From a virus (Duplodnaviria; Heunggongvirae; Uroviricota; Caudoviricetes): a stretch of DNA of 33,830 bases. The notes under the pieces are model-generated. The model made no database searches. It saw nothing but the letters and a program-made list of their open reading frames with translations, and was not told where the DNA came from. Below are positions 5,422 to 8,890 of the stretch, piece by piece. Location of the stretch: IMG/VR virus record IMGVR_UViG_2740892219_000011; one strand, 5' to 3'. The stretch's first letter is position 1; each line of letters starts with the position of its first letter. The translations under genes and the position numbers were made by a program.

Positions 5422-5946
5422 ATGGCTAAACCAGCAAAACGTATCAAAAGTGCCGCAGCGGCTTATGTGCCACAAAACCGCGATGCGGTGATTACCGATA
5501 TTAAACGCATCGGGGATTTACAGCGCGAAGCATCACGTCTGGAAACGGAAATGAATGATGCCATCGCGGAAATTACGGAGAAATTTGCAGCCCGGATTGC
5601 ACCGATTAAAACCGATATTGAAACCCTTTCAAAAGGTGTTCAGGGATGGTGTGAAGCGAACCGCGACGAACTGACAAACGGCGGCAAAGTGAAGACGGCG
5701 AATCTTGTCACCGGTGATGTATCGTGGCGGGTCCGTCCACCCTCAGTAAGTATTCGTGGTATGGATGCAGTGATGGAAACGCTGGAGCGTCTTGGCCTGC
5801 AACGCTTTATTCGCACGAAGCAGGAAATCAACAAGGAAGCGATTTTACTGGAACCGAAAGCGGTCGCAAGTGTTGCCGGAATTACAGTTAAATCGGGAAT
5901 TGAAGATTTTTCCATTATTCCGTTTGAACAGGAAGCCGGTATTTAA
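5422..5946 (+). CDS. gam: Gam host-nuclease inhibitor (Ku-like DNA-end-binding protein), 174 aa
   Basis: Sequence MAKPAKRIKSAAAAYVPQNRDAVITDIKRIGDLQREASRLE... is recognisable as Mu Gam, near-identical as far as I can recall. Confidence 0.92.
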   Translation: MAKPAKRIKSAAAAYVPQNRDAVITDIKRIGDLQREASRLETEMNDAIAEITEKFAARIAPIKTDIETLSKGVQGWCEANRDELTNGGKVKTANLVTGDVSWRVRPPSVSIRGMDAVMETLERLGLQRFIRTKQEINKEAILLEPKAVASVAGITVKSGIEDFSIIPFEQEAGI

Positions 5947-6044: not shown

Positions 6045-6575
6045 ATGGTTGATGCAAAAATTCTGAATGGTGTCAGCACATTATTACGGGCTTACGGACG
6101 CCTGACCTGCGGAGTTCTGGCTGAAAAAATGAATATGCTGCCCTCGTCAATGGTGTATTTCCTGCGTGATGCAGTTGATGCCGGAGTGCTCACCGAATGC
6201 AACGGATTTTATGACGTTCCGCGCCCGCGTCCGACGCCGCCTGTAAGACGAAACGTAACTGAGCAGCCTGCTGTTGATGATGCGGTGTGGTGCAACTGGC
6301 GTCGCTCATTACCCTGGGTGGAAGGTAATACCATCCCCGCGCTGGCAAAAGAGTTTGCGACGGGCGTACTGACCTGTGAATCCGTTCACATCGTTGCAGA
6401 AGTGGACAACAGCATGTGCGAACAGGGTATGCCCCGTTTTGTGATGGCTTATATCGATATCCGGCTTGGGCGTTTTATTTGCAGTTCAAGCGCCTGGAAT
6501 ATCACCGACCATGTACTGCGTTATCTCATTCTTGATTGTTCTCCGGTTCCCGCAGCGGTGCAGGAGGTGGCGTGA
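6045..6575 (+). CDS. Hypothetical early protein, 176 aa
   Basis: ORF with RBS GAGGAATAAAAC upstream of the ATG. Confidence 0.6.
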   Translation: MVDAKILNGVSTLLRAYGRLTCGVLAEKMNMLPSSMVYFLRDAVDAGVLTECNGFYDVPRPRPTPPVRRNVTEQPAVDDAVWCNWRRSLPWVEGNTIPALAKEFATGVLTCESVHIVAEVDNSMCEQGMPRFVMAYIDIRLGRFICSSSAWNITDHVLRYLILDCSPVPAAVQEVA

Positions 6576-7105
6576 TGTTTTTTAAAACGTCAAATTCCGC
6601 AGCACTGCTGGCATGGGACCAGTTTATGGCGGACTGCCTGAAACTACGCGAAGAAGCCCGCCATCTTGATAAGGTTCTGGGCTGTGGTTGCCGGTCAGTA
6701 TTCAGCACAGGTATTGGTGGGCGTCATTTTCATGGCGTGAATTTTCCGGGGAATGAGCGCCCCTTCTCGCGGGAGCTGTGGACCGTACAACGGCCCGCAT
6801 CAGGTAACAGTTGCAGGCCCAGAACTTCACGGATACCTGCTCATCTCAGGGAGCAGGCAAGAGAGCTGGCGAAAATATGGCAGGAGAATATTCCGGTCAC
6901 TTACGCCCGCACAGACGCTCTTTTACCCGCACTGGGACTGGATTTCAGCGCAACAATATTCGGGCCGCTCCAGTGGTTCCGTGTTGGTGATGTGATTTAC
7001 GTCATGACGGGGATGACACCCGCACAAGGCCGCATGACTGAAATCCTTTCTGACGAATTTATCCGGGCGCAAAAACAGGCGGAGGTAAACAATGGAAAAC
7101 AATGA
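6575..7105 (+). CDS. Hypothetical early protein, 176 aa
   Basis: Internal ATG at 6575 preceded by AGGAGG and overlapping the upstream stop (GTGATG); the longer ORF from 6536 lacks an RBS. Confidence 0.55.
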   Translation: MFFKTSNSAALLAWDQFMADCLKLREEARHLDKVLGCGCRSVFSTGIGGRHFHGVNFPGNERPFSRELWTVQRPASGNSCRPRTSRIPAHLREQARELAKIWQENIPVTYARTDALLPALGLDFSATIFGPLQWFRVGDVIYVMTGMTPAQGRMTEILSDEFIRAQKQAEVNNGKQ

Positions 7106-7284
7106 AAAACAATGAAACATCGTATTCGTGGCTGGGGAAATTTACCACGGTGAAACAGGAATGCCCGACCTGCGGTAATGAATCTCCTGAATATCTGAAA
7201 GAGTGCCCTCATTGTGGCGGGCAGAAATGCAACCACTGCGATATGGGCGATGACACGGCGTGCATGAATTGTGAAGGTGAATAA
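7102..7284 (+). CDS. Zinc-ribbon protein, 60 aa, four CxxC motifs
   Basis: CPTCG...CPHCGG...CNHCD...CMNCEG. Start overlaps the upstream stop (ATGA) inside a decamer tandem repeat. Confidence 0.6.
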   Translation: MKNNETSYSWLGKFTTVKQECPTCGNESPEYLKECPHCGGQKCNHCDMGDDTACMNCEGE

Positions 7285-7285
7285 T

Positions 7286-7576
7286 ATGAATAATGAAACT
7301 AAATTTACGCCTAAAGACCTGGATGAAGAACTGGTGAAAGCTAAGATGCTTGAGCGTATGCGCGATGTTATTGAGACTGCAATCAGTAAAGGCTTTTCTG
7401 CGAGAGAGGCCCTTGAAATTATGACACGGGAAATTCATCTCATACGCGACGAAGTTTTGTTGCATAACAAAAAAGCCCACAACAATATTGTTTGTCGTGA
7501 GCTTGGCGTTGATGATTCAGCGGTTATTCCACAGCGTCAGTATCTGTGTGCTCTGATGAGAGGTTCCCGGCATTAA
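7286..7576 (+). CDS. Hypothetical early protein, about 96 aa
   Basis: ATG 7286 preceded by GAAGGTGA. Its 3' end overlaps the convergent minus-strand ORF by about 53 nt, so one of the two calls may be wrong. Confidence 0.45.
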   Translation: MNNETKFTPKDLDEELVKAKMLERMRDVIETAISKGFSAREALEIMTREIHLIRDEVLLHNKKAHNNIVCRELGVDDSAVIPQRQYLCALMRGSRH

Positions 7577-7883
7577 CAATATCCTGCCTTGAAGCCCAGA
7601 GCTTATTGAGCAGCAGATCAACATACTCATCGGCCTCAAAATCCAGTTCTTCGAACGTTTTTCGGTTCTTATAGCTGGCCTGTGTATTTCTGATGATGTC
7701 ATAAGCATCGTGCATGTTGATAACACCGTTTTCAATCAGCTTAATCATCAGATTACCGACCAGCATAAAACCGGTTATACCAAAGAATTTATCCTGGTTA
7801 TTAACAGGGGTGTCTTTCTGGTTTGTTTCGAAATCTGGGTTTTGTTCATCATCCGACACCGTATGTTGTTCTTGTTCAGCCAT
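7524..7883 (-). CDS. Reverse-oriented, highly acidic hypothetical protein, 119 aa
   Basis: Minus-strand ORF with RBS AAGGAAAT 5-7 nt upstream of its ATG. Hand count gives about 24 Asp/Glu versus about 9 Lys/Arg; composition is protein-like. It is the only clearly protein-like frame across 7577-7952 and sits in an AT-richer stretch. Confidence 0.55.
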   Translation of the reverse strand: MAEQEQHTVSDDEQNPDFETNQKDTPVNNQDKFFGITGFMLVGNLMIKLIENGVINMHDAYDIIRNTQASYKNRKTFEELDFEADEYVDLLLNKLWASRQDIVNAGNLSSEHTDTDAVE

Positions 7884-7952
7884 AATATTTCCTTTTATGT
7901 TATTACTGAATATGGCGGTGTTGCAGCACCGCCTCTTTCCGGAGGTACGATC

Positions 7953-8504
7953 ATGAGTCGCACATCCCTGATTAAATTAATCCATGTCGCCCGTCGGGAG
8001 CTACAACTCGACGACGACACTTACCGCGCTTTTCTGATGCAGAAAACGGGCAAAATCAGTTGCCGCGAGCTTACGGTTACGCAACTGGAACAGGTGCTCG
8101 ATGCCATGAAAGAACGCGGCTTTAAGAAGCTGAATAAATACCCCCGTCGCCGCTTTAAGGAACATGTCACACCCCGCGAGAAGGTGTATAAAATCTGGCA
8201 GCAGATGGCAGAAGACGGTTTTATTACCGATGGCGGTGATGTGGCGCTGGACAGATATGTTCAACGCCTGACCGCGAAACGCAACGGCGGACAGGGTGTT
8301 TCCACACTGGCGTGGTGTCATGGCGACACGCTGCTGACAGTCCTCGAAACACTCAAACAGTGGCACATCCGCTGTATTCGTGAAGCCTTTTCCCGTCACG
8401 GGCTTCCATTGCCGGTCAGTCCGTCCGGTCGTGAACTGCGCGGCTATGATGCCATGACGGCGGCTTATGCCCATGCCAGAAAGACACAGAGGATGGCACA
8501 ATGA
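7953..8504 (+). CDS. gemA: GemA-like early protein, 183 aa
   Basis: ATG 7953 preceded by GGAGG at 7941-7945; position directly upstream of mor. The long ORF from 7710 is an artefactual upstream extension. Confidence 0.75.
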   Translation: MSRTSLIKLIHVARRELQLDDDTYRAFLMQKTGKISCRELTVTQLEQVLDAMKERGFKKLNKYPRRRFKEHVTPREKVYKIWQQMAEDGFITDGGDVALDRYVQRLTAKRNGGQGVSTLAWCHGDTLLTVLETLKQWHIRCIREAFSRHGLPLPVSPSGRELRGYDAMTAAYAHARKTQRMAQ

Positions 8505-8890
8505 CGGAAGATTTATTTGGTGATTTGCAGGATGACACCATCCTGGCACATCTTGACAATCCCGCAGAGGATACGTCACGCTTTCCGGCACTGCTGGCGG
8601 AGCTGAACGATTTACTACGCGGGGAATTGTCCCGACTGGGTGTTGATCCTGCCCATTCACTGGAGATTGTTGTGGCTATCTGTAAGCATCTGGGCGGCGG
8701 TCAGGTCTACATTCCACGCGGTCAGGTTCTGGACTCGCTGATTCGGGATTTGCGTATCTGGAATGATTTTAACGGTCGCAACGTCAGCGAACTGACCACC
8801 CGTTATGGTGTCACTTTCAATACGGTTTACAAGGCCATTCGCCGGATGCGACGGCTGAAATACCGCCAGTACCAGCCCTCACTTCTGTAA
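8501..8890 (+). CDS. mor: Mor middle-operon transcriptional activator, 129 aa
   Basis: Paralogous to the downstream C ORF (LGGGQVYIPRG / FNGRNVSELTTRYG versus LGGRQFYIPCG / FNGRNMEELRRQYR); last gene of the early operon, followed by a terminator. Confidence 0.9.
   Translation: MTEDLFGDLQDDTILAHLDNPAEDTSRFPALLAELNDLLRGELSRLGVDPAHSLEIVVAICKHLGGGQVYIPRGQVLDSLIRDLRIWNDFNGRNVSELTTRYGVTFNTVYKAIRRMRRLKYRQYQPSLL

Follow-up and report, generated by a model that had tools for sequence, protein, structure and literature searches.

Three tandem copies of the decamer AACAATGRAA lie across the boundary between two early genes of a Mu-type phage, which raises the question of whether they form an element that controls the expression of these genes or are the product of an ordinary mutation in a region constrained by overlapping coding sequences. 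We addressed this question in a window of 33,830 nt, by which we mean the whole stretch of DNA that was analysed. The initial annotation of this sequence considered the array to be a possible phase-variable or translational-coupling element, in which slippage would change the initiating frame or fuse the two open reading frames (ORFs).

The window matches Escherichia virus Mu_3F6 (LR595867.1) with 100% identity over 25 kb and an offset of 488, and the gene order Gam (5422-5946), gp11 (6045-6575), gp12, gp13, gp14 (7286-7576), GemA (7950-8504) and Mor (8501-8890) is that of the Mu early region. The gene upstream of the junction, gp12 (old Mu name E13; 6575-7105, + strand), encodes a 176-aa protein of the Phage_Mu_Gp12 family that ends in ...AEVNNGKQ*, with the stop codon TGA at 7103-7105; it matches phrog_2314 (E = 1.9e-79), its position equals that of Mu_12 in AF083977, and PF26885 was detected on the identical gp12 gene of two other loci that are discussed below (L100 and L101). 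The downstream gene, gp13 (old Mu name E14; 7102-7284, + strand), encodes a 60-aa, zinc-ribbon-like protein with four CxxC motifs that begins MKNNETSYSW... and matches phrog_5584 over its full length (E = 5e-44); its Pfam matches, to DnaJ_CXXCXGXG and zinc-ribbon families, are weak and all below the cut-offs. In Mu_3F6, the corresponding coding sequence (VUD37875.1) is annotated from the second ATG of the array. A Shine-Dalgarno (SD) sequence, GGAGGT, is located at 7081-7086 (+ strand) and is annotated in AF083977 as the ribosome-binding site of Mu_13; its duplex with the 3' end of 16S rRNA has an energy of -10.8 kcal/mol. Overlapping junctions are found elsewhere in this operon, namely TGATG at gp11/gp12 and ATGA at GemA/Mor. 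PADLOC and NCBIfam yielded no match for gp12, gp13, gp14 or the reverse ORF downstream of them, and a literature search returned no mention of Mu_3F6 and nothing relevant on Mu gp13 or the semi-essential early region.

The reverse ORF (7524-7883, - strand; 119 aa, phrog_38610) is convergent with gp14, overlaps the 3' end of gp14 and sits before gemA; it has no Pfam match. In the same slot, canonical Mu has a longer gp14 and Mu_54 (+ strand), and relatives have reverse ORFs of 138 aa (L100 and L020) or 88 aa (E. coli A21); from these sequences, the gp14-gemA interval looks like a variable accessory-gene slot. Just upstream of gemA, at 7838-7946 (+ strand) of the window, there is a sub-threshold match to the Rfam NLPC-P60 RNA (22.9 bits, compared to a gathering threshold of 53.7; E = 0.35), which is most likely due to chance.

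The decamers occupy positions 7088-7097 (AACAATGGAA), 7098-7107 (AACAATGAAA) and 7108-7117 (AACAATGAAA) of the + strand, and the surrounding segment, 7081-7122, reads GGAGGTAAACAATGGAAAACAATGAAAAACAATGAAACATCG. Tandem Repeats Finder reports the array at 7087-7117 (period 10, 3.1 copies, 95% matches), with a score of 55 that is the highest among all arrays of the window. AACAATGRAA has three matches in the window, whereas 0.27 would be expected and 100 shuffles always gave fewer than three; the count exceeds chance because a unit present once in the relatives was recently duplicated exactly, giving copies 2 and 3. The arrangement described in the initial annotation, with three tandem copies within 7085-7120 that contain three ATG codons 10 nt apart in three frames and extend across the stop of the 6575-7105 ORF and the start of the zinc-ribbon ORF, was confirmed: the 3 x 10 nt tract spans exactly 7088-7117, covering both the gp12 stop and the gp13 start, and the three codons are at 7092, 7102 and 7112 (hereafter ATG1, ATG2 and ATG3), one per frame. 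Copy 1 holds ATG1 (7092-7094), which is the gp13 start in all two-copy relatives; in copy 2, ATG2 (7102-7104) and the gp12 stop TGA (7103-7105) together form ATGA; and copy 3 holds ATG3 (7112-7114) and faces a 10-nt gap in the alignment with Mu. Copies 2 and 3 are identical and the new unit of the two is not definable; together, they hold the 10 nt that are missing in relatives. A similar sequence recurs at the start of gp14 (7286-7299), where ATGAATAATGAAAC (MNNET) echoes both the gp13 N-terminus, M(E/K)NNET, and the decamer sequence AACAATGAAAC; with 4 occurrences in the window compared to 1.5 expected, the motif is not significantly enriched.

The comparison of copy number among related prophages, which the initial annotation had proposed, revealed a difference, with three copies here versus two in essentially all relatives, and indicates that two copies are the ancestral, nearly universal state to which the window adds one unit by a 10-bp tandem duplication. 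Two copies were found in about 60 related loci from Mu, D108, SfMu, Mu-like phages of Yersinia, E. coli genomes, IMG/VR and metagenomes. For D108, SfMu and five Yersinia Mu-like phages, this state was evident either from a match 10 nt shorter or from the sequence read directly; in complete E. coli genomes, 30 of 30 full-length matches were 10 nt shorter than the query, and RMDEC465 was also two-copy; 18 IMG/VR loci have two copies as well. Mu itself (E13/E14 in AF083977) has the same genes, order and junction and, with the 10-nt indel set aside, shows 96% identity to the window over 401 nt, but its junction consists of AACAATGGAA followed by AACAATAAAA, with TAA as the gp12 stop and ATA replacing the second ATG, and its gp13 starts at ATG1 and reads MENNKT..., unlike MKNNET... 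in the window.

The pattern GGTAAACAATG-(0-30 nt)-AAACATCGTATTCGTGG, which covers one to four copies, matched contigs from viruses (15) and metagenomes (5), and in each of them the spacer was 10 nt, which corresponds to two copies; a more degenerate junction pattern added 13 matches, all of them two-copy; with these two patterns, no allele with one copy or with four or more copies was found in viral and metagenome contigs. A scan of genome contigs with the exact junction pattern gave no match, and the matches to the gp13 protein in Bacteroidales MAGs that were obtained in the genome contig search are spurious, being limited to a 25-residue CxxC segment. A loose three-copy DNA pattern matched only two contigs in IMG/VR, from giant-virus MAGs, each with about six tandem copies of AACAATGAAA (L106, 6960-7020, - strand; L107, 5765-5835, + strand); these arrays are AT-rich, apparently intergenic and unrelated to Mu, and are probably a low-complexity coincidence. 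Three copies were read as DNA only in the window (that is, Mu_3F6), in L100 (GCA_024629355.1) and in L101 (ENA metagenome ERZ28604339), so that in the approximately 65 loci read as DNA there are two states only, with either 2 or 3 copies.

The sole protein change in the three-copy allele is E2K in gp13 (MKNNET...). The exact K2 protein (P0002) was identified on 32 contigs from NCBI, JGI, ENA and Logan (Salmonella Montevideo, E. albertii and E. coli), compared to at least 1000 contigs for each of three two-copy products, namely P0001 (E2), P0004 (the MENSET variant) and P0031 (Mu gp13), where the figure of 32 is to be read with the caveat that a four-copy allele would encode an identical gp13 and that the DNA was read at 3 of these loci. 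A collection of 15 billion proteins contains none of nine hypothetical proteins in which K2 is combined with other gp13 alleles. L100 and L101, which were fetched via the K2 protein, carry identical three-copy DNA, and 20 further contigs or places resemble L100, which indicates that the three-copy allele is stably inherited.

Comparison of the flanking sequences shows that L101 differs from the window at 2 positions in about 3.2 kb. L100 and the window, in contrast, differ at 361 sites over about 3.2 kb, including a different module of gp14 and the reverse ORF, whereas L100 differs from a two-copy locus (L008) at only 26 sites over about 3.2 kb and the window differs from the two-copy E. coli JCKP02 at 20 sites. 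Given that each of the two backgrounds has a much closer two-copy relative, the duplication probably arose twice, on two phage backgrounds, by slippage. Alternatively, a single origin could have been followed by transfer of a recombination tract of about 155 bp or less, the differences between L100 and the window that are closest to the repeat on its two sides being at 7027 and 7182; there are mosaic breakpoints in the vicinity, as in L012, but two slippage events are favoured.

We consider it likely that the array represents an allele of the gp12/gp13 junction in which 10 bp were duplicated in tandem, most probably by replication slippage. The inserted unit is identical to its neighbour, and the two-copy alleles already repeat AAACAATG at 10-nt spacing. 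The ancestral pair, AACAATGGAA and AACAATGAAA, would itself be a by-product of the overlapping codings of ...VNNGKQ* at the end of gp12 and MENNET at the beginning of gp13, which would create an 8-nt (plus 2-nt) direct repeat at 10-nt spacing and thereby a substrate for slippage. The repeat looks like such a by-product, rather than a selected element, because the second ATG varies, with ATA at this position in Mu and GTG in several loci, whereas all relatives compared have retained ATG1 as the start as well as a stop codon for gp12, either TGA or TAA. The junction module is retained even where the 3' end of the upstream gene is of a different sequence type. Slippage on this substrate would add the third unit, which would be tolerated since the unit brings its own ATG. 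With known short slippage indels, the allele shares an insert that is an exact copy of its neighbour, a prior direct repeat and outgroups that fix the ancestral state at two copies. It differs in its consequences: a 10-nt insertion in overlapping coding sequences normally causes a frameshift, whereas here both ORFs survive the non-triplet insertion because a start codon is supplied by the unit and the insertion lies downstream of the gp12 stop.

In two-copy alleles, gp13 starts at ATG1, with GGAGG ending 6 nt upstream (the coding sequence and the ribosome-binding site are annotated accordingly in AF083977), and its N-terminus is MENNET... in most relatives and MENNKT... in Mu; the gp12 stop is in copy 2, 11 nt beyond ATG1. 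In the three-copy allele, the gp12 stop TGA in copy 2 is unchanged, and the in-frame start of gp13 is ATG2, 16 nt after GGAGG, overlapping the gp12 stop as ATGA. ATG1, proximal to the SD sequence, now opens a 7-codon ORF, MENNEKQ* (7092-7115, + strand), whose stop TGA (7113-7115) overlaps ATG3; this ORF exists in the three-copy allele only and accordingly shows none of the conservation of a leader or upstream ORF. From ATG3, a 13-codon out-of-frame ORF, MKHRIRGWGNLPR*, extends over 7112-7153 (+ strand), and its start is not conserved (ATA in Mu, GTG in others). When alleles with 2, 3 and 4 copies were generated by script, copy 2 invariably contained the end of gp12, and gp13 started at the ATG of the last-but-one copy, at 6, 16 and 26 nt from GGAGG, respectively. 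Adding copies can therefore neither silence gp13 nor join the two ORFs, because the stop and an in-frame ATG are kept at any number of copies from two upwards.

The junction has the geometry of a coupled pair, that is, co-directional genes with a 4-nt ATGA overlap (7102-7105) and an SD sequence inside the 3' end of the upstream gene. In E. coli, ATGA overlaps are typically coupled, with 4 of 5 tested pairs coupled and three of them strongly (PMC6728339); coupling requires an overlap or a very short distance, and the 4-nt overlap is the commonest coupled arrangement and is enriched among subunits of complexes (PMC10666635). The SD-to-start aligned spacing has a narrow optimum near a DtoStart of 14, with native sites at 13-14 (PMC9841429). 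By this metric, in our own arithmetic, DtoStart is about 14 for ATG1 and about 24 for ATG2, which suggests that SD-directed initiation should favour the 7-codon ORF over gp13; the 16 nt between the SD sequence and ATG2 lie beyond the spacer range tested in that study, and a weak GGAA is located 5 nt before ATG2. Thus, ATG1 stands at a near-optimal distance from GGAGG in two-copy phages, and in the three-copy phage it opens a 7-codon dead-end ORF.

Translational coupling at the gp12/gp13 junction, the other role raised in the initial annotation, is plausible. Given that ATG2 overlaps the gp12 stop by 4 nt, as in the commonest coupled arrangement, most gp13 of the three-copy allele would be expected to come from ribosomes that have finished translating gp12, or the mini-ORF, and then reinitiate at ATG2; ribosomes that end the mini-ORF 9 nt downstream might add to gp13 synthesis, and the level of gp13 would probably be somewhat different from that in two-copy phages. 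Because the repeat is rich in A and has no predicted base pairing, ATG2 might also initiate alone, without coupling; for naked RNA, part of the SD sequence is predicted to be base-paired, a fragment-level prediction to which we assign low weight. Initiation at an in-frame GTG at 7150 could yield a shorter gp13 that resembles distant homologues, whose N-termini are short. Compared to typical coupled pairs, the ATGA here arose secondarily, through the duplication: in the common allele, the genes overlap by 14 nt and gp13 has a well-spaced SD sequence, whereas in the window the SD sequence sits 16 nt from the gp13 start and primes the 7-codon ORF. Programmed -1 frameshifting was considered as well and rejected, as the sequence lacks a slippery heptamer (A runs reach at most 5 nt, in GAAAAAC) and about 10 nt after the repeat are predicted to be unpaired.

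The claim that slippage would change the initiating frame or fuse the ORFs thus holds in part. The added unit does move the gp13 start from ATG1 to ATG2, and contraction to one copy (GGAGGTAAACAATGAAACATCG) would, as derived from the sequence, fuse gp12 and gp13 in frame into a 229-aa protein that reads ...AEVNN-ETSYSW... across the junction. Expansion, however, keeps both ORFs, and neither the one-copy allele nor a fusion protein was found: a search with the predicted fusion among cluster representatives of 5.8 billion proteins yielded no gp12-gp13 fusion of about 229 aa in 56 significant matches, and returned gp12 relatives of 171-176 aa. Fusions of other kinds involve these genes. A 212-aa protein from Logan/ENA (P0083) joins part of gp12 (PF26885) to a Mor domain (PF08765) and presumably reflects a deletion that fused gp12 to mor in a degraded prophage. 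In some Mu-like prophages (L018-L022; for example, L020 at approximately 976-1671), the gp13 zinc ribbon forms the C-terminal part of a 231-271-aa protein that replaces gp12 and gp13; zinc-ribbon fusion proteins of this kind include P0003, P0009, P0015 and P0086, and phrog_6418 represents the fused form. The natural 231-aa zinc-ribbon fusion was rejected as a product of repeat contraction, since its N-terminal domain is unrelated to gp12 (BLASTP E = 13).

Under the slippage scenario, the three-copy allele would be neutral or slightly harmful and would have no regulatory role. Selection for the duplication itself, through a reduction of gp13 translation or its strict dependence on the translation of gp12, is an alternative that we regard as unlikely. 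Under that alternative, a 14-nt overlap with an SD-driven start of its own would have been exchanged for the 4-nt ATGA overlap and a decoy mini-ORF. The distance of 16 nt between GGAGG and ATG2, as well as the prevalence of the 4-nt overlap among coupled genes and subunits of complexes noted above, are compatible with such retuning, and so is the apparent occurrence of the event on two occasions with persistence of both lineages, including the 20 places that resemble L100. Yet the allele is rare, at about 1% or less, is absent from 31 complete E. coli genomes and shows no sign of spread past the two lineages.

Two related proposals assign a function not to the three-copy allele but to the variation in copy number. 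Under the first, the decamer pair is a low-rate mutational 'rheostat', in which recurrent slippage from 2 to 3 copies, as seen on the two backgrounds, toggles gp13 between SD-driven initiation and strictly gp12-coupled initiation downstream of a decoy mini-ORF; we consider this very doubtful, but if it were true, Mu-type phages would sample gp12:gp13 stoichiometries or architectures (a single copy being the fusion) at the population level. Under the second, which appears less probable still, the array is a phase-variable contingency element, such that frequent slippage switches gp13 expression or the gp12/gp13 architecture in the phage population. Close relatives do differ in copy number, with the three-copy state on two backgrounds, the one-copy state would give the in-frame fusion derived above, and zinc-ribbon proteins naturally fused to other N-terminal domains do exist. 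However, only two states were seen in the loci read as DNA, the three-copy product is far less frequent than each of the three two-copy products, and neither the nine other hypothetical K2 variants nor the fusion were found in the protein collections; moreover, both ORFs are intact at two or more copies, hence there is no on/off state. The proposal of phase variation in the initial annotation is accordingly not borne out. Known contingency loci, for example those with tetra- and pentanucleotide tracts in Haemophilus and Neisseria, have tracts far longer than two or three 10-nt units. The junction shares with them a tandem repeat at the 5' end of a gene and a copy number that varies between strains, but its tract comprises 2-3 units only, its variant is rare and stable, and the gene is never out of frame.

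Even less can be said for a DNA-level element, in which helically phased decamers with A-tracts would constitute a protein-binding site or bent DNA and which we consider extremely improbable: the 10-bp period does fit the helical repeat, with A4, A5 and A3 tracts in phase, but the array lies inside a tightly packed operon, the third copy is missing in nearly all relatives, and the variation among relatives follows coding constraints, with the gp12 stop and the gp13 start kept and the second ATG free. No promoter-like or terminator-like site and no Rfam match were detected at the gp12/gp13 junction. A sequencing or assembly artefact, for which one could invoke that the window equals a single database record, Mu_3F6, is ruled out for practical purposes by the same three-copy sequence in the independent assemblies GCA_024629355.1 and ERZ28604339 and by the 32 contigs overall.

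The array is, then, an ordinary, rare and probably recurrent duplication polymorphism of the known slippage type. For the annotation of such phages, this means that a well-placed SD sequence points at a 7-codon ORF, whereas the real gp13 begins 10 nt later, at the ATGA overlap. The allele is a natural example of a non-triplet, 10-nt insertion that is tolerated in overlapping genes via a start codon inside the inserted unit. Isogenic two-copy and three-copy alleles differ only in the SD-to-start distance and the length of the overlap, and thus form a natural pair for the comparison of SD-driven initiation with termination-reinitiation.
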